Source: a virus (Duplodnaviria; Caudoviricetes). Taken from it: a stretch of DNA of 64,000 nucleotides. Positions within the stretch are counted from its first letter, which is position 1, and every line of letters begins with the position of its first letter. A model generated the notes under the pieces. That model saw only the letters and a list, made by a program, of their open reading frames with translations, searched no databases and was not told the DNA's origin. The translations under genes and the position numbers were made by a program. Shown here piece by piece: positions 18,311 to 29,902 of the stretch. The DNA is taken from positions 5,271-69,270 of IMG/VR virus record IMGVR_UViG_3300037418_003152. One strand, given 5' to 3'.

Positions 18311-19684
18311 TCAGAGCGTCGAGACGACGTTGCGCAGGCGACCGACGAACTTCGGGGCCCGCAGCGCCAGGCAGGTGTCCGTGGCCAGGGCGAACGGGAG
18401 CTGGTCGGGGCTCGCGGTGGTGGGGTAGATCTGCAGCGGCGTCACGTCGCGGACGTAGGGGCGCAGCAGGATGTCGGGGTCGCGAGGGATCAGGTAGATG
18501 TCCTCGCCGCCGCCGATGCGCGGCTTCTGCGAGCCGCCGCCGACGTAGGCCGCGACCGGGTTGACCGGCGCGGTGGCCCCGTTCATCGGGATGAGCGTGG
18601 CCCCGGTGTCGATGATCGAGGTGGCGTAGACCGGGGTGATGCCGTCGCCGGTCACGCCGACCACGGCGTCGACGATGCCCAGCAGCGTCTCCGCGCCCGC
18701 CGCGGTGCCGCGGTAGACCCGGTAGGACTGCGGGGCGGCGCCTTCCATGCCCTGCGGGGTGGCGAAGCTCAGCGTGACCGTCGAGGTGCTGCCCGTGGTG
18801 ACCTGGGAGACCTCGGTCGAGGGGAGCAGCGTGCCCGCGCGGGCCATCACCGGCTCGATCACGTAGTAGTAGGTGCCGGCCGCGAGCGAGCCGCCGGTGG
18901 TGGCGGTCGCGGCGGTGACCACGCCCATCTGGGTCGCCAGCCGCGAGGACAGGAAGCTGGACTTGATCAGCGGGATGTCGCGGTAGGCGGTGACGTTCAG
19001 GCCCGCGGCGACCTCGGTCTCGCCGAGGAACCGCTGCAGCGGGGTCTCGTACTGCGCGATCTTCGCCGCCGCGGTGGAGCTCATCACGAACATCCACTGG
19101 TCGTTGAAGATGGGCATCGCGGAGTTGGACTCCACCATGTCGATCAGCAGGTCAAGGTGGCGCAGCGCCAGCGAGGCGCCGGCGACGTCGAGCGCGTTCT
19201 GCGGGTTCTGCGCGGTGGACGCGAACTGGCTGACCATGACGTCGAGGCCGTCGAACTGCGGCCACGGGCCGTTCTGGGTCGCGGCCGCGGAGCCCCACAG
19301 CATCGCCTGCTCGATGTCCCAGAGCAGACCCTGCATGCAGGACGCGATCTCCTGCGCGCGCAGGTCGCCGATCTGGTCGCGGGTGACCTCCTGGGCGAAC
19401 CCGGTCACGCCGCCGACGCTCTGGAGCAGCTTGATGACGAACTGGAACTGCTCGTAGACGCTGTTGCCCATCGGCCGGGCGCCGCCGTCGGTCACGAACC
19501 CGCCCGGGGCCCGGTAGGTGCGGCGGTTGAAGTAGTACGTGGTCGAGCTGATCTTCTTGGTCGGGGTGACGCGGATCAGCGGGGAGTAGCGCCGCTGGTA
19601 CTCCAGCAGCAGCGGGTCGATGACCTTCTGGATCAGGGCGGGAACGCCTGCGGCGGTCAACGCCTCGTCGAGCTCGGTAGCCAT
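18311..19684 (-). CDS. Major capsid protein (HK97 fold) with an inserted beta-sandwich domain
   Basis: RBS AAGGAG; after protease/scaffold; DIEQAMLWG, QFDGL motifs; internal GSLAAGTYYYVI...YRVYRGT segment. Confidence 0.85.
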   Translation of the reverse strand: MATELDEALTAAGVPALIQKVIDPLLLEYQRRYSPLIRVTPTKKISSTTYYFNRRTYRAPGGFVTDGGARPMGNSVYEQFQFVIKLLQSVGGVTGFAQEVTRDQIGDLRAQEIASCMQGLLWDIEQAMLWGSAAATQNGPWPQFDGLDVMVSQFASTAQNPQNALDVAGASLALRHLDLLIDMVESNSAMPIFNDQWMFVMSSTAAAKIAQYETPLQRFLGETEVAAGLNVTAYRDIPLIKSSFLSSRLATQMGVVTAATATTGGSLAAGTYYYVIEPVMARAGTLLPSTEVSQVTTGSTSTVTLSFATPQGMEGAAPQSYRVYRGTAAGAETLLGIVDAVVGVTGDGITPVYATSIIDTGATLIPMNGATAPVNPVAAYVGGGSQKPRIGGGEDIYLIPRDPDILLRPYVRDVTPLQIYPTTASPDQLPFALATDTCLALRAPKFVGRLRNVVSTL

Positions 19685-19821: not shown

Positions 19822-21405
19822 TCACTGGTCGGTGAAGACCGGGCCCCATGCCGCCGCGGCGCGGCGGGCGAACTCCTCGGGGGAGAGCTTGTGCAGCGGC
19901 GTCGCCTCGGGGTCGTCGACCTTGGCGGCGGCCTCGACCAGGCCGCGGCGCGGCGGCGGGCCGTAGGCCTCGAGCATCTGCTTGCGCAGCGTGTCGGTGG
20001 CCGCCTCGACGGCCGCGTTGACCCGCTGCGCGACGTCGGCCTCGGTGAGCCCAGCGGCCGGCGCGGGCGCGGCGGCCTCGGTGGCCGGGGTGGTCGCGGC
20101 GGGCGCGTTCTCGGCCGGCTCGGTGGCCGCCGGGGCGGGCGGGGCGATCTTGGCGGCCAGCGCGGTGGCGATCGCGTCGACGTCGGCCGCGTTCAGCGTC
20201 GGCGCGACGGCGGCGGGAGTGGGCTCGGCGGCGTCCTCGGTGGCGGCGCCACCGGCAGCGGCACCCTCGGGCGCCTCGGAGGCCGGCGCGGTCTCGGTGG
20301 TCTCGGCGGGCGCGCCCCCGGCGGGGTCGTCCTTCGGGGTCTTCTCGGACACGGTGTTCTCCTTGTCAGCGGCATCGGCCGCCTCGGTGTCGTCGACGGC
20401 AGCCAGGGAGGTGCCGCAGGCGGGGCAGAACATGGCGCCGTCCGGGAGGCCGGCGTTGCAGGAGGGGCACTGGCCGACGGTGTCGCCGTCGGGCAGGTCC
20501 AGGTCGTCGTCGTTGTCGGGGTCCAGGACGCGCAGCGCGGCGTCGTAGGCCTTGCCGAGCTGGGTGGCCGCGGCGGCGACGTCGTCGTTGGACAGGCCCC
20601 AGGCGTCGATGTCGATGTCGACGGGGCCCTGCCAGCCCGAGACCGCGACGTGGGCCTCGCGGACCTTGGCGAGCATCGCGTCGTAGCGCTCGCGGGCCTG
20701 CTCGGTGGTCTCGGTGGTCTCGGTCTCCTGGGTCTGTGCGTCATCGCCCGTCGCGTCGCCCGTCTCGGTGGCGGCCTCGGTGGCGGCCTGCGCGGCCGGG
20801 CTGCCGGGGCGCGGCGGGACGGCCGCGGGCGTCGGCGTGCTCGTGGTGTGCACGAGCCGGGAGTCGGACATGACGGAGACCTCCACGGACTCGGTGATCG
20901 GGGTACGGGCGTCGGACTCGGTGGTGGTGCGCGAGGTGCCGGTGATCCGGGCCGCGGCGACGCCGGGGGACTTGGTGAAGTCGATGCCGTCGATCTCCAG
21001 GTCGTCGCCGGTCTCGCACATCACGCCGTCGACCTCGACGCGGCGCACCGGGCCGAGCCACCAGCCGCGGATGGACACCGCGTCGAGCACCCGGCGCCCG
21101 TCGGGGCCGGGTTCGATCGCGGAGGCGATGTCGCGTCCGGCGGCGGTGTCGATGAGGTAGCCGTGCAGCCGGGCCCGGTGGGTCTGGGGGTCCAGCTCGG
21201 CGGTGACGACCCGGGCGCACAGCTCCTTGGAGTCGTCGCCGGCGGCGTGGTGGGACAGCATCGTGACCGGCAGCGCCTCGGGGTCGGCGAGGCGCGCGAC
21301 GAGCCGGTTGTAGGCCTTCTCGATGATCTCCGCGGTGTAGAGCCGGTTGTTCGCGCTGACGCCCGGCGCGAGGAACCAGGACTCGATGGTGCCGATCACG
21401 GCCAT
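19822..21405 (-). CDS. Prohead protease-scaffold fusion with a zinc ribbon
   Basis: NNRLYTAE, SHH, VSIRG, GIDFTKSPGVAAA protease-like N-terminus; CPSC...FCPACG ribbon; A/P/E-rich scaffold. Confidence 0.75.
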   Translation of the reverse strand: MAVIGTIESWFLAPGVSANNRLYTAEIIEKAYNRLVARLADPEALPVTMLSHHAAGDDSKELCARVVTAELDPQTHRARLHGYLIDTAAGRDIASAIEPGPDGRRVLDAVSIRGWWLGPVRRVEVDGVMCETGDDLEIDGIDFTKSPGVAAARITGTSRTTTESDARTPITESVEVSVMSDSRLVHTTSTPTPAAVPPRPGSPAAQAATEAATETGDATGDDAQTQETETTETTEQARERYDAMLAKVREAHVAVSGWQGPVDIDIDAWGLSNDDVAAAATQLGKAYDAALRVLDPDNDDDLDLPDGDTVGQCPSCNAGLPDGAMFCPACGTSLAAVDDTEAADAADKENTVSEKTPKDDPAGGAPAETTETAPASEAPEGAAAGGAATEDAAEPTPAAVAPTLNAADVDAIATALAAKIAPPAPAATEPAENAPAATTPATEAAAPAPAAGLTEADVAQRVNAAVEAATDTLRKQMLEAYGPPPRRGLVEAAAKVDDPEATPLHKLSPEEFARRAAAAWGPVFTDQ

Positions 21406-21492: not shown

Positions 21493-22035
21493 GTGGGACC
21501 TTTAATGGCGGTGGTCGTCGTGAAGCGATGGGCGAAATACACGCTTGTGGGGGTAGCTGGGCTGTTCGTCCTGGGCGGGATCGCGTACGCGGTCGACCCG
21601 CCCGCGCCCGCGCCCGCGGTGGCCACGGGCTCACCCGCGCCCACCCAGCCACCCACCCAGCCGCCGCCCACCCAGGCACCCGCGGGTGCGCCCGCGGCCC
21701 CGGTGGCCCCGGCACCCGAGCCCGCGCCCGCGGCACCCGCGGCTGAGCACGACCGTGAGCAGTGCCGGGTGACCGGGATGAACGGCGGGGTCTTCTACAT
21801 CACGATCGCCAGCGCGGCCGCGCACGACTTCTCCGCGTGCGAGGGTGCGGAGCAGATGACCCCGAACATCGACTCGCTGCTGGACAACCCCGGCATGGAC
21901 AGGCGCTGCCTGACCGAGACCTCGCAGGACGTCGAGCTCTACAACGCCTTGATCGGGGTCTACTCCGACACCAAGAAGGCCAACCTGGCCGCGGCCAAGG
22001 ACTGGTGCGACTCGGCCGGATTCGGCAACGAGTGA
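21493..22035 (+). CDS. Membrane-anchored exported protein, antisense to the head operon (moron-like)
   Basis: N-terminal TM, Pro-rich linker, 4-Cys globular C-domain. Confidence 0.7.
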   Translation: MGPLMAVVVVKRWAKYTLVGVAGLFVLGGIAYAVDPPAPAPAVATGSPAPTQPPTQPPPTQAPAGAPAAPVAPAPEPAPAAPAAEHDREQCRVTGMNGGVFYITIASAAAHDFSACEGAEQMTPNIDSLLDNPGMDRRCLTETSQDVELYNALIGVYSDTKKANLAAAKDWCDSAGFGNE

Positions 22036-22065: not shown

Positions 22066-22245
22066 ATGGCCACCCACCCCTGTGACCACCCGGACTACCT
22101 GCTCGAGGAGACCCGGATCCGCGGCGTGGACGCCTGCTGGTGCGGGGCGCTGGTGCTGACCGGGCCGCCCGCCACCCGGGTGGTCCTCGCCCCGTCGAGC
22201 GCGACGACCCCGGCCCCGGAGCGCGGGCGCGTCAGCTCGGGGTGA
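22066..22245 (+). CDS. Small hypothetical protein (59 aa)
   Basis: Manual ORF MATHPCDHPDYLLEETRIRGVDACWCGALV...; not in the track. Confidence 0.4.
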   Translation: MATHPCDHPDYLLEETRIRGVDACWCGALVLTGPPATRVVLAPSSATTPAPERGRVSSG

Positions 22246-23497
22246 CCCAGCAGCGGCAGCCCCCGTGCGGGACGTCGGGCAGCTCGAACAGCTTCCACGG
22301 GCTCCGGGCCTGATAGTCCTCGCAGGTGCTGCACGCGCCTTCGGCCATGCAGTTCCACCACATCTCGGTCAGCCCGACGGTGTCGTAGAGCGACGCGGAG
22401 GCCTCCAGGTAGGTCTGGGAGACCTGCTGGTCGAGGTAGTACAGCGCCCCGGCGCCCCCGGCGATCAGCGCGACGACGGCCTCGTCGGTGACCGGGTGCT
22501 CGTCGGTGTGGCGGGCCAGCAGCGTCGCGAGGTCGCCGCCCATGCCGCCCTGCTGGGCCTCGATCCACTCGCGCGGGTCGAACGGGTCCGGCAGCGGGGA
22601 GTCGTCCGGGTCCACCGGGATGTCGCCCTGGGTCAGGGCGTGCGCGGCGGCCGCGGCACCGGCCAGCGCCGCGGCGGTGTGCGCGTCGCGCACCGCGGTC
22701 TGCCAGTCCAGGTCGACGCCAAGGATGCGGGCCTGACGGGCGATCTCGGCGGCCAGCACGGCGCGCACCTCGGCGGGGTCGACCTGCGGGTCGTAGGCCA
22801 GCCGCGCGGAGGTGACGTCGAACCCGTCGCCGAGCGCGGCGAGCACCGCCATCAGCGCGGCGCCGGCCGCGACGTGGGTGCGGTCGCGCTGGCGTGACAC
22901 CGCGACCAGCGCGGCCGCGGCGATCGCGGCCAGCTCCTCCTCGGTGGGCTCGCCGTCCGGGTCGGCTTCGGTGACCGCGGGCGCGGTCTCGGTGGCCGCG
23001 GCGCCCAGGGGCAGCTCGTGCCAGACCGAGCCGAGCGCGACGACGAGCCGGTCGAGGGTGACCGGGCCGGTGTGGTCGAGCGCGGCCGCGTCGAGCCCGT
23101 AGCCGGCGGTGGCGTGCGGAATCCACGGGGCGTGCTGCGCGGGCAGCTCGGCGCCGAGCACGGTGGCCGCGACGTCGACGACCTGGCGTTGCAGCGGCGC
23201 CAGGTCCGGGCAGTCTCCGACCAGGTGCACCGCGCACTGGTCCTCGGCGTCGCCGGGGGCGAACGTGGCGTGCCCGACCACCCGGGCCGACAGCGGGCCG
23301 GGCATGGCCGAGGCCAGCGCCCCGACCGCGGTGACCAGCTGGTCGGCGCGTTCGGCCGGCCAGCCGGTGACGTCGTCGCCGAGGTAGGCCAGGGTGAGGT
23401 GGATCTGGTCGAAGCGGTCCCCGCCGGGCACGGTCAGCGCCTGCGGGTCGGCGGGGAGCAGCGCGATCATGCCGCCGGTGTGCGGTCCGTCAGCCAC
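22232..23497 (-). CDS. 2H phosphoesterase fused to a MuF-like head morphogenesis domain
   Basis: Two HxT motifs (IHLTLAYLG; WIPHATAGY); C-terminal CSTC...PHGGCRC MuF/gp7-type motif; between portal and protease. Confidence 0.8.
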   Translation of the reverse strand: MADGPHTGGMIALLPADPQALTVPGGDRFDQIHLTLAYLGDDVTGWPAERADQLVTAVGALASAMPGPLSARVVGHATFAPGDAEDQCAVHLVGDCPDLAPLQRQVVDVAATVLGAELPAQHAPWIPHATAGYGLDAAALDHTGPVTLDRLVVALGSVWHELPLGAAATETAPAVTEADPDGEPTEEELAAIAAAALVAVSRQRDRTHVAAGAALMAVLAALGDGFDVTSARLAYDPQVDPAEVRAVLAAEIARQARILGVDLDWQTAVRDAHTAAALAGAAAAAHALTQGDIPVDPDDSPLPDPFDPREWIEAQQGGMGGDLATLLARHTDEHPVTDEAVVALIAGGAGALYYLDQQVSQTYLEASASLYDTVGLTEMWWNCMAEGACSTCEDYQARSPWKLFELPDVPHGGCRCWVTPS

Positions 23498-23921
23498 CGC
23501 TGCGCGAGCTCGACCGGCGCGGGGTCGCCTTCGGCGCCGGCTTGGCCTCGGCGCCGTCGGCGGGCACCGCGGACAGATTCGCGCTGCCCGCCTTGGCCGT
23601 GCGGCTGCGCGGCTTGGCCGCCGCGGGCTTGGCCAGCGCCTGGAGCGTTGTGGTCAGCGCGTCCCCGATGTACTCCCGGGTGGCCACGTGGTTCTTGTCG
23701 TCGACGTCGGCGGCCACCTGCGCTTCGACGCGCCCGGCGGCGATCTCGGAGTCGGTCACCCCGAGCCGCTCGAGGATCTGGTCGCGGGCCGCCTCGACCT
23801 GGGTGGTGATGTCGTCGCGGATCAGCCGGCGCAGCGTGACCGCGGCGAGCACCGTGGCCACGCCGACCAGCAGGATCGCGACGACCACGATGAGCAGGGA
23901 GATCAGGGGAGTCGGGTACAT
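23490..23921 (-). CDS. Single-TM membrane protein with a basic tail
   Basis: RBS GAAGGAG, ATG 23921 (MYPTPLISLLIVVV). Confidence 0.6.
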   Translation of the reverse strand: MYPTPLISLLIVVVAILLVGVATVLAAVTLRRLIRDDITTQVEAARDQILERLGVTDSEIAAGRVEAQVAADVDDKNHVATREYIGDALTTTLQALAKPAAAKPRSRTAKAGSANLSAVPADGAEAKPAPKATPRRSSSRSGG

Positions 23922-23953
23922 CGGGGCTCCTTCGCAGGTGTGGGGGGAGGGGG

Positions 23954-24781
23954 TCACCCGGAGCGGTGCGGGGTGACGAGGTACTGCCCGGCGCCGGTGC
24001 GGTGGCGGTGTCGGCCGCGCTGCAGGATCTGGTGGTAGATGTAGCGCTGGCGGTGCCGCAGCAGCATCCAGTGGTAGCGGTGGTGGAACGTGTGCTCGTG
24101 GCGTGCGGAGTGCACGCGGGTGTAGCGCCCCACGGTCTTGGCCCGGGACGGGCCGAAGTGGCGCAGCTTGAATGCGGGGCGGGCCGAGCGGGCCGCGGAG
24201 ACGGTCGCGGTGTGGCGCACGCTGGCGCGCCGCAGCCGGGCCTTGATCGCGGCCGGGGTCTGTGACCGGGTGCCGCCGCGGCCGGCGACCACCGGGCGGC
24301 GTGACCCGACGGGCCGACCATGCGCGGCCGAGCGGGCGCGGGCCAGGTTGCGGATCGCCGCGGCCTTCTGCGCGGCGGTACGGGGGCGGCCCCGGGCCAC
24401 CACCCTTGCCCGGGCCAGGTTTGCGCGCGACGCGGCCACCTGGGCCGCCGTACGGGGCCGCCCACGCTCCGCGGCGCGGGCCTTGGCCAGGTTCGCGCGG
24501 GAGGCCGCGAGCTGAGCCGCGGACCGGGGGCGGGTGCGCGCGACCACGCGGGCCCGGGCCAGGTTCGCCCGCGACGCGGCGAGCTGCGCGGGAGTGCGGG
24601 GACGGGTCCGGGCCACGGCGCGGGCCTTGGCCAGCGCCGCGCGGGAGGCGGCGAGCTGCGCCGCGCTCCGCGGGCGGCTGCGGGCCGCGGCGCGGGCCTT
24701 GGCCAGGTTCGCCCGGGCCGCGGCGAGTTGGGCCGCGGTACGGGGGCGGCTGGGTGACTTCTTGCGAGTCGCCACAGCCAC
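23954..24781 (-). CDS. Extremely basic Arg/Ala-rich repeat protein (histone H1/protamine-like)
   Basis: Six 24-aa repeats, only two acidic residues in 275 aa, His-rich C-terminus; fills the gap between neighbouring genes. Confidence 0.7.
   Translation of the reverse strand: MAVATRKKSPSRPRTAAQLAAARANLAKARAAARSRPRSAAQLAASRAALAKARAVARTRPRTPAQLAASRANLARARVVARTRPRSAAQLAASRANLAKARAAERGRPRTAAQVAASRANLARARVVARGRPRTAAQKAAAIRNLARARSAAHGRPVGSRRPVVAGRGGTRSQTPAAIKARLRRASVRHTATVSAARSARPAFKLRHFGPSRAKTVGRYTRVHSARHEHTFHHRYHWMLLRHRQRYIYHQILQRGRHRHRTGAGQYLVTPHRSG
24320..24751 (-). repeat. Six 72-bp coding tandem repeats (RPR[T/S]AAQLAASRANLA[K/R]AR)
   Basis: Directly visible in translation and DNA. Confidence 0.9.
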
Positions 24782-24790
24782 CCCCGCACC

Positions 24791-24895
24791 TCAGCGGTAG
24801 ATGACCTTCCGGACCAGCACCGCCGCCTTGTCCGCCGTCATCGGGCCCGAGGGGCCCGGCGCGGGCGGTGGCGGCGGCGCCGGCTGGTCGGCCAT
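24791..24895 (-). CDS. Micro-ORF (34 aa) MADQPAPPPPPAPGPSGPMTADKAAVLVRKVIYR
   Basis: TGATG overlap with upstream stop; fills the gap exactly. Confidence 0.5.
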   Translation of the reverse strand: MADQPAPPPPPAPGPSGPMTADKAAVLVRKVIYR

Positions 24896-25542
24896 CAGCT
24901 GGTGGTGGTGTCAGCCGAGCCGGTGCCCGAGCCGTCGGCCGGGGCCGCGACCGAGGTGTCGGTGGCCTGGGCGTCGGTGGCCGGGGCCGCGCCGGTGTCA
25001 GCGGCCGAGGCGTCGGCGGATGCCTCGGAGGTGCTGGCGGAGGCGTCGTCGGCGGACACGGTGGTCACCTCGCCCCCGGTCGGGGCCGAGGGCAGCGGGT
25101 CCTGCGCACCGGTGCCGGTGTCGCTGGACGGGGCCGCCACGTCGCCCGCGGCGGCGGGCGCCGACGGGTCCGCGACGTTGGTGTCCGCGGCCGGGGGCAC
25201 CACCGCCGGGGCGGTCGGGGTGTACGCGGAGACCGTGTCGCGCAGGTTCTGCACGAGCACGGTGAGCCGGTTGTGGCCGTCGACGAGCTCCTGGTGCTCG
25301 CCGGGCTCGGCGTTCGCGGCCGCGGTCAGGGTGTCGATCTGCTGCTTCTGCGCAGACAGCTCGGACTCGACCTCGTTGAGCAGGCCCTCAAGTGCGCCGA
25401 TGTCATCGCTGATGAAACTCATGACCCTCTCCATCTCCTGTCGGAGTCGGCCGATCCGGTGCCGGAAGTCGGCGCTGATGTCCTGCACGAGCCCGGAGAC
25501 CCGTGCACGTTCCTCGTAGAACTCCTCGCGCGTGACGTGCAT
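24895..25542 (-). CDS. Coiled-coil protein with a low-complexity acidic tail
   Basis: TGATG coupling to the portal stop. Confidence 0.6.
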   Translation of the reverse strand: MHVTREEFYEERARVSGLVQDISADFRHRIGRLRQEMERVMSFISDDIGALEGLLNEVESELSAQKQQIDTLTAAANAEPGEHQELVDGHNRLTVLVQNLRDTVSAYTPTAPAVVPPAADTNVADPSAPAAAGDVAAPSSDTGTGAQDPLPSAPTGGEVTTVSADDASASTSEASADASAADTGAAPATDAQATDTSVAAPADGSGTGSADTTTS

Positions 25543-27134
25543 CAGTCCTCCTGAGCTGCGCCGGCGGCGACGAGACGCCGGTAGTGCTCGGTGACCCGGG
25601 CCCGGTACCGGCGGGCGGTCTCAGTGCTCGGGGCGGGCGCCTTGGCGGTGCGGGTGCCCGCCGCCGACGGGGGAGGAGACGCCGGCGACGGGCCTTTCTT
25701 CGGCGGGGCGGCCGAATCTTGATCGGCCCCGGCGCCGTCGTCGGCGGCGTCGGGGTCGTCTGGGTCGGGCTGGCCTGGATCGGGCGGGCCCGGATCGGGA
25801 GGCACCAGAGAATCGATCTTGGCTTGGGACAGGTCGGCGATCTGCTCCCACAGCACGAGGTTCTGCCGGTCGATCAGCACGTGGACATCCCCGGCGGGGC
25901 CGATGGTCGGCTTGCCGATCTCGGCGAGGTAGTCGTTGAGCGTCCAGGACCCGTTGTGCAGCCGCATGTCGCGGATGTCCTCGACCACCTTGTCGTCGCG
26001 CCAGTCGACCTCGGCGAAGACGATCTCCCAGCCCTCGATCTTGAAGGCCTCGCGGGTGAGGGCGAAGTTCAGCTTCTCCAGCAGGATCTGCTCGATCGGC
26101 CCGCAGGTGTTGACCTTGAAGGTCTTGTCCTGCGAGGTGCCGGTGCCGCCGCCGATGTTGCCCGAGTCGATGACGCCGACCTTCGCGGGCGGCACCCCGG
26201 CCTCGGACAGGATCGTGTCGCGGCAGGAGTCCTGGATCGCGAGGTAGTCGCCGATCTTGCCCAGGCCCAGCTCGTTGAGCGTGGCGCCGCCGCGGGTGGT
26301 GATCGGGTTGCCGATGTTGGCGGTGCCCAGGTTGCGCACCGAGTACTGGCCGCGCCAGGCGCGCACCTCGTCGGGCTGAACCTCCAGCGGGAAGTCCATG
26401 TGGATGTGCGGCGGGTCGCCCTTGCGCATCGTCTCCTTGATGCACGCCGCGGTGAACAGCCAGATCGTGACCGGCAGCAGCGCCTTCTGCGCGATGCCCA
26501 TCCCGTAGAGCGACCCCTTCGGGGCGTCCATCGAGATGTGGATGATCTGGTGCGGCTCGAAATGCACCTCGCGGGAGTCGATCGCCTGGTCGTAGCCCAG
26601 GACGACGCCGTGCTCGTCGGCGTCCACGGTCATCGTCGCCGGGTCGAGCGGGTAGAGCGCCACGGGCAGCCCGAGCAGCCACACCACCTCGATGAACGCG
26701 TCCCCGTAGATGCCCATGTCGGTCACCGAGCCGCGCAGCAGCTGGATGATGTCCATGTGCGGGTTGCAGAACCGCAGCAGGTTCTGCAGCGCCCGGACCT
26801 GCTTGGGCGGGTTGTCCGGGGAGACGTCGCCCTGGGCCTCGGAGGTGGGCAGCACCTGCAGCCCGCCCGCGGTGACGGTGCGCGCGATCGCGTCGATCGG
26901 CGCCGACAGCCACGGACACCCGGTGTAGGCGACGTACAGGCTGGTCATGAACGCGGCCCGGCCGTCGGGGTAGTCCCCGCCGGGGTTGAGCTTGTTCGCC
27001 CCGCCGAAGGGCACGTCGGAGTCGAAACCCATCCGGGCGGCGGCGGTGGCCATCTGGGACGGCGCCGGGGCCGGCGCCAGCTCGGTGATCGCGGACTCGT
27101 AGAGCGGGGCGATGGTTCCCGCGGAGGTGAGCAT
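25542..27134 (-). CDS. Portal protein
   Basis: YGDAFIEV, LYPLDPATM, FEPHQIIHI, GVPPAKVG, WTLNDYLAEIGKP motifs (HK97-like portal). Confidence 0.92.
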   Translation of the reverse strand: MLTSAGTIAPLYESAITELAPAPAPSQMATAAARMGFDSDVPFGGANKLNPGGDYPDGRAAFMTSLYVAYTGCPWLSAPIDAIARTVTAGGLQVLPTSEAQGDVSPDNPPKQVRALQNLLRFCNPHMDIIQLLRGSVTDMGIYGDAFIEVVWLLGLPVALYPLDPATMTVDADEHGVVLGYDQAIDSREVHFEPHQIIHISMDAPKGSLYGMGIAQKALLPVTIWLFTAACIKETMRKGDPPHIHMDFPLEVQPDEVRAWRGQYSVRNLGTANIGNPITTRGGATLNELGLGKIGDYLAIQDSCRDTILSEAGVPPAKVGVIDSGNIGGGTGTSQDKTFKVNTCGPIEQILLEKLNFALTREAFKIEGWEIVFAEVDWRDDKVVEDIRDMRLHNGSWTLNDYLAEIGKPTIGPAGDVHVLIDRQNLVLWEQIADLSQAKIDSLVPPDPGPPDPGQPDPDDPDAADDGAGADQDSAAPPKKGPSPASPPPSAAGTRTAKAPAPSTETARRYRARVTEHYRRLVAAGAAQED

Positions 27135-27752: not shown

Positions 27753-29399
27753 TCAGGTCTGGGACCAGATCGAGAACCGGGACAGGTCCGCGGGTAGCGC
27801 CCGGTCCTCGGCGTTCCCGACCGGGGCGGACAGGTCGCGCGGGTTGAAGGCGAACTGCCCGCGCAGCACCAGGCCCTCGGCGCTCTCGCCCTCGTCGAAG
27901 ATCAGCGACGGCGTGCCGCCGATGTCCATCAGCAAATAGCGGAGGGCGTCGTAGTGGTGGTCCTTGGCCTTGGTGTCGACGTCCTCGGGCTTGCGCGGGT
28001 CCCGGGGCAGGTTCTCCATCGTCGACATCAGCTCGGGGCAGCTGTGGTCGAGCACGTGCAGCATCGGGCAGGTCGACCAGCCCAGCGCCCGGTGGTGCGC
28101 GCACGCCGGGCCCTCGGCCAGGTACTGGTGGATGCGCTGCTTGCCGCCGAACCGGTCGTTGTCGGCCTTGCGCAGCGGCGCGCCCTCCAGCGCGAACTGC
28201 GAGGCCGGGGGCAGCGCCGATCCTGACCGGCCCCACATCGCCGGGTCCGCCGCACGGGAGGCTGGGGGAGTGGTGCCCTCGCAGTTGATGATCCGGCGGG
28301 CCTGCTCGCGTTCCGGGGTCTGGATCATCGTCAGCTCGCGGTAGAGCCAGACCCGGCCGTCGGCGTCGCGCGCGCCCAGCAGGTAGGCCGAGGGCGCGGT
28401 CCAGCCGTAGTCGAGCCCGGCGTAGCGCGGCCACGACGGCGGCACGTCGAACGGCGGGACGAGAATCCTGTCGCGCTTCCAGTCGCCGAACGCGCCGTCG
28501 GGCATGACCGACCAGTCGCCGTCGAGGATGCGCCGGCGCAGCTCGGGGTCGGTGATGCCTTCGAGGGTCTTGGCGTAGTCGCCGACGAACGGGTTGTCGC
28601 GCACCTTGGCCGGGATGAAGATGCGGCGCCGGCCGGCGTCGTCGATCAGCTCGACGCGGCCGTAGTCGGTGGCGTCGACCCAGCCCTCTTTGACCACGCC
28701 GTGCCCGACGAATCCGGGGTTGGACGCCGAGCGCACCCCGAGGCACGGCACGCCGGGCACACCGGAGCGGACACGGGTGTAGAGGAACTCGACGACGTCG
28801 GGGTCGATCGTGGTGCGCTCGTCGAGGATCAGCAGGTTGATTTCCGCCGAGGACAGCGCGGAGGCTTCCTGCATGTTCTTGGCGTGGGCGAAGGTCAGCA
28901 CCGACCCGCCGGGGAACCGCAGCTCGTAGGTCGAGCCGTTCCACACCGCGCCCAGCGAGGCCCCGAACCCGTAGCGGGCCAGCATGCGCAGCACCGACTG
29001 GTTCAGCTCGGGGAACGACCGCCGGAACCAGAACACCTGGATCCCGGGGTACCGCACGCAGGTGCGCAGCGCGAGGATCAGCAAAGCGGCCGACTTCCCG
29101 CCGCCACCCGCGCCGCCGTAGAGCACGTCGAGTTCTTCGTCGGGCAGGTCGATGAACCGCTCCTGCGGGCACTGCCCGCACCGCGGCGGGATCGGCTCGC
29201 CGGCCGCGCGCGCCTCGTACTGCACCTTGCAGTTCGGGGTGAACCCGAGGATGGCCAGGACGTCGGCCTTGGCCATGCGCTCGGCGATCTGGCGGTCCCG
29301 CTGGCGGCGCAGCTCGGCGAGGCGCTGCAGCATCTCCAGCGGCGCCTCGACGACGCGCACGACCTCTTCGTTGCGGGGACGAGCGGGACGACGAGCCAT
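27753..29399 (-). CDS. terL: Terminase large subunit
   Basis: Walker A YGGAGGGGKS, Walker B ILDE, SASNPG, nuclease GLDYG and DHHYDALRY. Confidence 0.95.
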   Translation of the reverse strand: MARRPARPRNEEVVRVVEAPLEMLQRLAELRRQRDRQIAERMAKADVLAILGFTPNCKVQYEARAAGEPIPPRCGQCPQERFIDLPDEELDVLYGGAGGGGKSAALLILALRTCVRYPGIQVFWFRRSFPELNQSVLRMLARYGFGASLGAVWNGSTYELRFPGGSVLTFAHAKNMQEASALSSAEINLLILDERTTIDPDVVEFLYTRVRSGVPGVPCLGVRSASNPGFVGHGVVKEGWVDATDYGRVELIDDAGRRRIFIPAKVRDNPFVGDYAKTLEGITDPELRRRILDGDWSVMPDGAFGDWKRDRILVPPFDVPPSWPRYAGLDYGWTAPSAYLLGARDADGRVWLYRELTMIQTPEREQARRIINCEGTTPPASRAADPAMWGRSGSALPPASQFALEGAPLRKADNDRFGGKQRIHQYLAEGPACAHHRALGWSTCPMLHVLDHSCPELMSTMENLPRDPRKPEDVDTKAKDHHYDALRYLLMDIGGTPSLIFDEGESAEGLVLRGQFAFNPRDLSAPVGNAEDRALPADLSRFSIWSQT

Positions 29400-29467
29400 G
29401 CCACACCTCCTCGTCGGTGAAGTGGTGTGGCGGCTGTTCGACCAGCGGAAACGCGCAGATCAGCGAG

Positions 29468-29476
29468 TTATCCACA
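29468..29476 (+). promoter_or_regulatory. Perfect DnaA-box (TTATCCACA)
   Basis: Exact match to the TTATNCACA consensus in an AT-enriched intergenic region. Confidence 0.55.
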
Positions 29477-29664
29477 TTCGCGTACAGGTGGTTACTTTGA
29501 ACTTGAGTTGATCAGAAACCACCTACGCAAAGCGCGTTCGCTTTTCCGAGGCAAAGGTATTCACGGAGCGCAGCGGAGTGAATGCCTTTGCGGCGGCGCG
29601 CTAGCGCCGAGCTTTTCTCTCTTTATGTAATCTCTAGTATGTAGTTTCTAAGAACCCTGGTTAG

Positions 29665-29795
29665 CCGGATACGGCTCAACCGGATCCGGGTTACCCGGAC
29701 ACGGCCAGGCCGAGCACGGCCCCCCCGAGTACGGCCACACCGAACACGGCCCAGCCGAACACGGGTAAGCCGTCTTCGGTTACCCCGGGATCGGT
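29665..29795. repeat. About nine degenerate direct repeats with 15-bp period (core CCG-NNN-ACGG), iteron-like
   Basis: Units start at 29665, 29680, 29695, 29710, 29725, 29740, 29755, 29770, 29785; next to AT-rich 29612-29655. Confidence 0.75.
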
Positions 29796-29902
29796 GCTGT
29801 TCGGGCTGGTCAGACGCTCGCGGTGTGGCGACGGAGACGGATTACCCGTGGGCGGTGTACGGTAACCACACGGAACCACACGACTGTAACTAGCCGGGAT
29901 GG

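Follow-up and report, generated by a model that had tools for sequence, protein, structure and literature searches.

The internal proteins of T4 apart, the DNA that HK97-type tailed phages pack is generally regarded as naked. Those T4 proteins (IPI, IPII and IPIII) are basic, and they are packaged and injected together with the DNA. Two other described systems are also close to the locus we report here. NUMOD3 is the minor-groove-binding helix of GIY-YIG and HNH homing endonucleases such as I-TevI and I-BmoI, and gp7 of phage SPP1 has been reported to bind both the portal and DNA. Here we describe a hyperbasic protein of 275 aa, made up of helical-looking repeats and a basic tail and encoded in the head operon of a tailed phage, which may act on the phage genome. 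The window we analyzed, meaning the whole stretch of 64,000 nucleotides, comprises bases 5271-69270 of a 69,270-bp IMG/VR viral record with a CheckV completeness of about 75%.

High-GC DNA gives rise to long ORFs in every frame, and the GC content of the window is about 73%, reaching about 76% in the part around the gene for the 275-aa protein. We found that GC in this gene is 0.77, 0.69 and 0.92 at codon positions 1, 2 and 3, similar to the values for the adjoining genes. A check for a better-supported ORF in another frame turned up none: a competing 440-aa ORF has a GC3 of only 0.69, and the antisense frames with high GC3 at 23954-24781 are split by stops into pieces of 88-125 aa. Since the TGA stop of the gene overlaps the start of the following 155-aa gene (GTGA), we consider the gene to be translationally coupled. 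The same frame is used by homologues of the protein in phages of 44-52% GC, a range in which spurious ORFs are rare. The 275-aa ORF is a genuine coding gene under purifying selection.

The protein contains 69 Ala, 58 Arg, 14 His and 9 Lys residues, with two Glu and no Asp, and has a net charge (K+R-D-E) of +65 and a pI of about 12. Six tandem 24-aa units with the consensus R-P-R-T/S-A-A-Q-L-A-A-S-R-A-N-L-A-K/R-A-R-A/V-A/V-A-R-x are followed by a tail rich in Arg, His and aromatic residues (Table 1). Tandem Repeats Finder reports a period of 72 with 5.3 copies (score 378) and a period of 144 with 2.5 copies (score 436). The units are 54-88% identical to one another as protein and 57-82% as DNA, and the DNA differences between them number 70, 69 and 172 at codon positions 1, 2 and 3. 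Estimates of dN/dS between units (NG86) range from 0.11 to 0.77, with a median of 0.27 and every pair below 1. The best conserved positions of the repeat are polar and basic rather than hydrophobic, and Leu recurs at heptad spacing in the Ala-rich helix. An AlphaFold2 model (AF2; 8-sequence alignment, pTM 0.30) predicts one helix of 18-20 residues per repeat, at aa 16-35, 40-59, 64-83, 88-107, 112-131 and 136-153 (pLDDT 85-94), with four-residue R-P-R-T/S turns between the helices. A model of the short orthologue P0071 (11 sequences) likewise has confident helices in the repeats only, with the tail at pLDDT <50. These counts, comparisons and predicted helices agree with the original prediction, which had described a protein with just two acidic residues, six helical-looking 24-aa repeats whose amino-acid pattern is kept while their DNA varies, and an Arg/His-rich tail. 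The excess of third-position differences and the dN/dS values between repeats are what bear out the claim about the retained pattern.

The gene belongs to a minus-strand virion operon in the order terL, a 190-aa gene, portal, the 215-aa, 34-aa, 275-aa and 155-aa genes, and a MuF fusion, which continues past two plus-strand inserts to the protease-scaffold, major head protein, head-tail adaptor and neck protein. It was thus correctly placed between the portal and the MuF fusion, an interval that also holds the 215-aa, 34-aa and 155-aa ORFs. The neighbors of the 275-aa protein are net negative, except for the 34-aa and 155-aa ORFs (+2 each); among the large head proteins the net charge runs from -4 to -49 (portal -26, MuF fusion -41, protease-scaffold -49, capsid protein -7). 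Two genes upstream of the +65 protein, the 215-aa protein ends in a long acidic tail of Ala, Asp, Ser and Thr. It has no homologue in the related loci, and in L013 a non-homologous coiled-coil/acidic ORF takes its place. The gene for the predicted 155-aa membrane protein is translationally coupled to both of its neighbors, and for its product we found no tblastn homologue in the related loci L001-L016 and no family match. The 180-aa product of one plus-strand insert has a signal/TM-like N terminus and a weak match to a Zot-like PHROG (1.7e-4).

Table 1. Positions of features in the window and, where a locus (L) or protein (P) is named, in relatives
Feature	Position or members	Strand	Basis or remark
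terL	27753-29399	minus	phrog_2
Portal protein	25542-27134	minus	PF04860 at 5e-20, phrog_12
215-aa coiled-coil/acidic protein	24895-25542	minus	N-terminal coiled coil, net -24, pI 4.1
34-aa ORF (small upstream ORF of the window)	24791-24895	minus	GC3 0.94; start overlaps 215-aa ORF stop (ATGA)
GAGG ribosome-binding site	24789-24792	minus	7 nt before GTG start; overlaps 34-aa ORF stop
Hyperbasic repeat protein gene, 275 aa	23954-24781	minus	ORF list; GTG start at 24781, TGA stop 23954-23956
Six tandem 24-aa repeats, aa 12-155	24317-24748	minus	In-register unit table, TRF, AF2 helices
Arg/His/aromatic-rich C-terminal tail, aa 156-275	23957-24316	minus	Low-confidence AF2, pLDDT 41-56
155-aa predicted membrane protein	23490-23957	minus	GTG start overlaps 275-aa gene stop; 8-nt overlap with MuF gene start
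2H-phosphoesterase / MuF-like minor head protein fusion	22232-23497	minus	PF13563, phrog_2659, phrog_18402
Two plus-strand genes	21493-22035 and 22066-22245	plus	Between MuF fusion and protease-scaffold
Protease-scaffold with zinc ribbon	19822-21405	minus	Operon annotation
Major head protein	18311-19684	minus	phrog_752
Small upstream ORF in relatives	L017:8859-9008, L019:8836-8997, L012:7833-7994, L015:1001-1150, L016:7837-7974, L026:3805-3951, L033:3786-3944
Pre-terL regions of relatives	L012:2327-2932, L016:3690-4289, L019:3078-3710, L017:4373-4762		Compared with window
Long terL genes of relatives	L019:4449-7142, L020:4449-7142, L012:3734-6310		858-897 aa, with insertion
LE3 protein between portal and MuF, 195 aa	L021:5758-6342; MF974396.1 11592-12176
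All-repeat proteins	L006:7902-8594, L007:7794-8591, L014:4985-5581		Phages unrelated to window phage
Cys/His-domain family	L037:3983-4582, L038:3421-4047, L039:3971-4618, L040:3610-4248; P0006, P0007, P0009-P0012, P0039, P0062
KHGLY members	P0003, P0008, P0018, P0020, P0022, P0027, P0028, P0030, P0037, P0040, P0066, P0068

We compared the 275-aa protein with curated libraries and large sequence and structure collections. Scans of the protein against Pfam (E<=1), PHROGs and NCBIfam, extended to relatives, found no family for it, and when PDB sequences were searched with the protein or with profiles A2 and A3, chance matches alone came back (E>=0.09). Foldseek found no match to the AF2 model in PDB or BFVD at E<=0.001; two phage proteins labeled 'nuclease-associated modular domain' (E 2.5-3.1) were taken as noise. 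ESM Atlas gave no usable match for the protein, and 50,697 records of cultured phages yielded no tblastn match to the 275-aa protein, P0016 or the portal. The GTDB representative genomes contained a single weak relative, in an Acidobacteriota MAG, and an HMMER search of 1.84 billion representative proteins returned only 30 at E<=0.001, with word-indexed searches giving similar sets. Literature searches that covered NUMOD3, basic proteins inside phage particles and LE3/LE4 turned up no mention of the 24-aa motif. The earlier claim that the protein has no recognizable family is therefore upheld by Pfam, PHROGs, NCBIfam and PDB alike, and the sequence searches found relatives in viral and metagenomic contigs and in no curated family. 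On sequence grounds, the 275-aa protein belongs to a new, uncurated family, and its 24-aa repeat is an uncurated motif.

Several known classes were considered for the protein and rejected. The NUMOD3 model (PF07460) matches neither the protein (E<=1) nor the whole viral record (E<=10), and it does not match 15 double-repeat units at E<=10, while the same model matches P0005 at 3.3e-9. When 69 repeat units were compared by hhalign with 7 canonical NUMOD3 units, a shallow profile, the probability was 1.4% (P 0.037). The 275-aa protein contains no nuclease domain; among its relatives, one (P0067) contains Endonuclease_7 and three contain true NUMOD3. The AT-hook model (PF02178) has no match in the viral record at E<=10, and RGRP is present in only two linkers. 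For the linker histone (PF00538) and the HU fold (PF00216), there was no Pfam, NCBIfam, PDB sequence or Foldseek match. Membership among small terminases was rejected as well, with no Pfam or PHROG match and a gene that lies downstream of the portal. Protamine-like proteins are about half Arg or more, short and non-repetitive, while this protein has 58 Arg in 275 residues (21%), 69 Ala and repeats predicted to be structured. The label 'histone H1/protamine-like' in the original prediction thus captures a likeness of composition and goes no further: the protein has no linker-histone domain and an Arg content of 21%, and its repeats are a specific conserved motif rather than K/A/P low complexity.

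At least 20 related viral contigs (11 distinct proteins, 44-76% GC) encode, directly after the portal, a protein with one to six copies of the motif and a basic tail. This synteny is seen in L012, L013, L015-L020, L022, L023, L025-L029, L031-L036 and the P0034 contig. The terL, portal, protease-scaffold and capsid genes of these phages are homologous to those of the window; portal identity within the clade goes down to about 46%, and the GC content of the loci is 44-69%, versus 76% at the window gene. We defined the family by at least one N-terminal T/S-x-x-Q-x-A-A-x-R-x-N-L-x-K-A-R helix, a basic tail with a pI of about 12 and a gene between the portal and the MuF or protease-scaffold gene. 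The 275-aa protein has these features and aligns with the family profile A3 (hhalign probability 97.5%, E 9e-12) over the repeats only, as does P0016. Its closest relative is the L013 orthologue, with 245 aa and about six repeats. There are three repeats in P0034, two in L012, L015, P0071 and P0072, and a single one in the orthologues of the L016 and L024-L035 groups. Homologues of the MuF fusion come after the basic protein in L012, L013, L015, L017 and L019. Between closer orthologues dN/dS is 0.08-0.17, with dS near saturation.

The tails of these proteins are less uniform. We found that the window tail is homologous to the L013 tail (Smith-Waterman score 106 versus 50 +/- 8 for shuffles; 0/500 reach the score, z 6.9). 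The short orthologues have a well-conserved tail of about 75 aa in common (alignment A3), and homology of the window tail to it was rejected, as the hhalign scores fell inside the shuffle range. A search for longer proteins with the tail of the short family found none. Given that the tail is homologous to that of L013 only, orthology across the clade rests on the repeat, the architecture and the synteny.

In most relatives the basic gene is preceded by an ORF of 34-53 aa, which often overlaps its start and which ends in the motif LTAxxAxxLVxKEVG. The 34-aa ORF of the window has this common C-terminal motif in alignment A5 (nine phages) and is, as judged from that alignment, a homologue of the conserved upstream ORF. 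The small ORF and the basic gene are an unannotated conserved gene pair adjoining the portal.

By capsid, the nearest cultured phage is Leptospira phage LE3, at 25% identity and as the only, distant match. The slot between portal and MuF in LE3 holds a different protein of 195 aa, which corresponds by position and size to the 194-aa gp20 that the LE3/LE4 paper places after the portal, assigns to pfam11300 (DUF3102) and classes as 'structure'. None of the repeat motif is present in it, and it was rejected as a relative. At the other end of the module, mid- and low-GC relatives encode a conserved Cys-rich protein of about 200 aa and a membrane-anchored protein of about 95 aa before terL, neither of which is in the window. 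In some relatives the terL product is 858-897 aa long and has an insertion. This insertion gives weak or faint LAGLIDADG matches in L019 and L020 and, on this sequence evidence, is probably an intein.

The motif is also present in proteins of other architectures. Three relatives (P0005, P0016 and the L010 protein) carry, in a single polypeptide, NUMOD3 motifs that border the repeats and are significant by Pfam (3.3e-9), and in P0067 four repeats are followed by an Endonuclease VII domain (1.1e-16). The interleaving with NUMOD3 favors DNA binding, and so does the layout of P0067, which is what one would see in a nuclease equipped with a modular arm for binding DNA. The same reading is favored by the extreme charge of the 275-aa protein (+65, pI about 12) within an operon of acidic proteins, and by the confidence with which helices are predicted in the repeats and not in the tail, as would be expected of a protein that becomes ordered on a polyanion. 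We consider it probable, from these features of the sequence, that the 275-aa protein binds nucleic acid. A DNA-binding role had also been put forward in the original prediction, and the NUMOD3 interleaving and the Endonuclease VII fusion now lend that part of it indirect support. However, several observations weigh against DNA as the ligand: neither the NUMOD3 and AT_hook HMMs nor hhalign connect the motif to a DNA-binding family, the nuclease fusion is one sequence on a 1-kb contig, and conservation of the tail does not extend from one subclade to another. In addition, the motif is fused to Cys/His and 'KHGLY' domains, so that a different polyanionic ligand, for example RNA, a wall polymer or an acidic protein, could be bound.

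The Cys/His proteins, of about 200 aa and found in high-GC viral contigs, consist of two repeats, a basic linker and a conserved C-terminal domain of about 130 aa with an invariant-looking Cys (LPxCxxxAxAxHL) and His (GYHAV). Pfam and NCBIfam give no match for this family, and its sequence suggests that the domain is possibly a cysteine peptidase. In the KHGLY proteins, some of which are 300-540 aa long, a variant of the repeat (RANLAKAREALRARGWPHSEKQ...) precedes a domain containing KLKHGLY. Their sources are MAGs labeled Acidobacteriia/Terriglobia and unlabeled metagenome contigs.

Since the gene keeps its place beside the portal in at least 20 contigs and evolves at a dN/dS of 0.08-0.17 among closer orthologues, a role for DNA binding within the head module is favored. 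The location of all-repeat relatives upstream of terL (L006, L014) implies that the motif keeps company with packaging genes, and a copy number that varies from one to six in the orthologues, and up to nine in the all-repeat proteins, fits an additive, non-specific binding module. That the 275-aa protein is a late-expressed, sequence-non-specific DNA binder of the head and packaging module, acting on the genome, is a reading we regard as plausible and just short of probable.

If so, each 24-aa unit would open with a basic, Pro-containing linker (R/K-P-R/K-T/S, which reads RGRPR in two units) and continue as a helix of 20 residues, whose spacing of residues would give it three stripes: a polar one of T-Q-S-N, a basic one of R/K and a small one of Leu/Ala. 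Six tandem units could then form a long polyvalent array along duplex DNA, like the strings of NUMOD3 helices in homing endonucleases. The tail, modeled at low confidence, may add charge neutralization or dock on an acidic partner (portal, MuF fusion or protease-scaffold). Because the gene adjoins the portal across the whole phage clade, action on the genome during packaging would be the most probable, and the protein may travel with the genome as an internal, charge-neutralizing or end-binding protein. It is from features of this kind that we infer DNA as the ligand, the mode of binding and a presence in the capsid. In its fullest form, the proposal would be that phages of this clade package a protamine-like or nucleoid-like helical-repeat DNA binder with their genome, loaded beside the portal. 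Inside the capsid, such a protein would neutralize and organize the DNA; it would then pass into the cell still attached to that DNA and shield it from host nucleases, a role also suggested in the original prediction beside those of an internal core or DNA-condensing protein. The number of repeats would be tuned between lineages, from one to six. We hold this full sequence of events to be doubtful, and the tight coupling of the gene to those of minor head proteins, which could mean a low copy number, speaks against bulk condensation.

Alternatively, the protein could be a packaging accessory that is not itself packaged: a terminase partner, of the small terminase or lambda FI type, that binds DNA near the portal and terminase and stays outside the capsid. 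This alternative survives best, and we consider it unlikely. All-repeat proteins of 7-9 units are encoded in L006, L007 and L014 at a distance of 0.4-1 kb before terL (phrog_9 type), as an accessory of this type might be; Pfam gave no annotation for the small ORFs adjoining these genes or for candidate small terminases. The terL gene of the window is the first of its operon, with no small-terminase candidate upstream (27753-29900), and the Cys-rich protein encoded before terL in mid-GC relatives has no window homologue, both of which are in keeping with such a partner. However, mid- and low-GC relatives have both that upstream protein and the portal-adjacent basic protein. Furthermore, the 275-aa protein has neither the HTH/oligomerization core of small terminases nor a PHROG or Pfam terminase match, and its gene is placed after the portal instead of before terL.

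Three other explanations appear to us improbable, and to a similar degree. In one, the gene would derive from a homing endonuclease that was free-standing, either as a relic of it or as its DNA-binding arm in domesticated form; it would have been inserted between head genes and have little or no role in the virion. The fusion of repeats to Endonuclease VII in P0067 and the co-occurrence of the motif with NUMOD3 are in keeping with this, as is the variable location of motif genes, which follow the portal in one phage group, follow the head-tail adaptor in L005 and L010 and precede terL in L006 and L014. In L005 and L010 the member in question is the NUMOD3-bearing one, located in a structural module; L005 has the capsid, protease-scaffold and adaptor genes in common with the window phage, and L010 the adaptor gene. 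A relic would nonetheless be hard to reconcile with a stable position across a deep clade (portal identity to about 46%, GC 44-76%), with purifying selection on the gene and with its conserved small partner ORF upstream, and none of the portal-adjacent members showed a nuclease domain or what is left of one.

In the second of these, the protein would be an assembly factor that binds acidic proteins (the portal C terminus, the protease-scaffold or the MuF fusion), with the repeats serving as a spacer or coiled coil. The heptad-spaced Leu residues in the Ala-rich helix, a copy number that varies like that of a length-setting element and the strongly acidic character of the neighboring head proteins (-24 to -49), with only the capsid protein (-7) nearer neutral, would all suit such a factor. 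The co-occurrences with nuclease and NUMOD3 domains point instead to DNA, and it is the polar and basic repeat positions, not the hydrophobic ones, that are best conserved.

The third explanation, no better placed than the other two, is a host-directed effector, made late or injected, that compacts or coats the nucleoid or binds RNA or ribosomes for shut-off or protection. Neighbors of the MuF type are often cargo carriers, as in the MuF polymorphic toxins; one is present here, and the composition of the protein is like that of nucleoid-associated and Arg-rich RNA-binding proteins. Yet the gene holds a conserved place in the core head operon, not among early or accessory genes, and it shows no similarity to known nucleoid proteins. 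Finally, the idea that the 275-aa ORF is no gene at all and merely a chance open frame in repetitive DNA of 76% GC, of the kind that high GC yields in all frames, is refuted by its GC3 signature, the third-position bias among its repeat units, its ribosome-binding site and overlapping start and stop codons, and its homologues in 44-52% GC phages, with dN/dS of about 0.1-0.2 among closer orthologues.

Should the protein indeed bind the genome and accompany it, HK97-type tailed phages would offer a rare example of a protein dedicated to coating the genome, and the 24-residue motif would be a new modular DNA-binding unit that recurs with NUMOD3, nuclease, Cys/His and 'KHGLY' partners. Even without a function, our results describe two head-module genes that are conserved as a pair in a clade with no cultured match, both of them blank in the annotation libraries tried.

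Comparison with known systems shows where this family stands. Like the T4 internal proteins, the 275-aa protein is small, basic and encoded with head genes, its presence in the virion being a proposal; it has no sequence similarity to them (PHROGs blank), the T4 proteins are not repeat proteins, and we identified in it neither a capsid-targeting sequence nor a protease site. With adenovirus protein VII, protamines and baculovirus P6.9 it shares a high positive charge and a likely disorder off nucleic acid. However, its Arg content is 21% compared to >40-50% in those proteins, its helical repeats are predicted to be ordered, no homology was found, and its source is a tailed phage with motor-packed DNA. 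Linker histone H1 tails, AlgP, Hc1 and actinobacterial HupB/HupS have a similar Ala-rich basic composition and tandem repetition, but theirs is K/A/P low complexity, whereas here a 24-aa motif is under selection, with an invariant Q, N-L and K/R-A-R. The linkers recall the GRP core of AT-hooks (RGRPR in two, HGRP in one, KGKPK or KGRPR in relatives), although most are S/T-R-P-R without Gly and the phage is 73% GC. The units resemble NUMOD3 in being short, basic and strung in tandem, with a basic-Gly/Pro-basic-Ser/Thr turn and then one helix. They differ from it in their 24-aa length, their predicted 20-residue helix and their own conserved positions (T/S-x-x-Q ... R-x-N-L-x-K-A-R), and the 275-aa protein, unlike NUMOD3 proteins, is without a nuclease domain. 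Lastly, the gene recalls those of SPP1 gp7 and the MuF proteins, which are likewise encoded directly after the portal. Given that the window and many relatives have a separate MuF-like gene beside it, we conclude that the 275-aa protein is distinct from gp7 and MuF.
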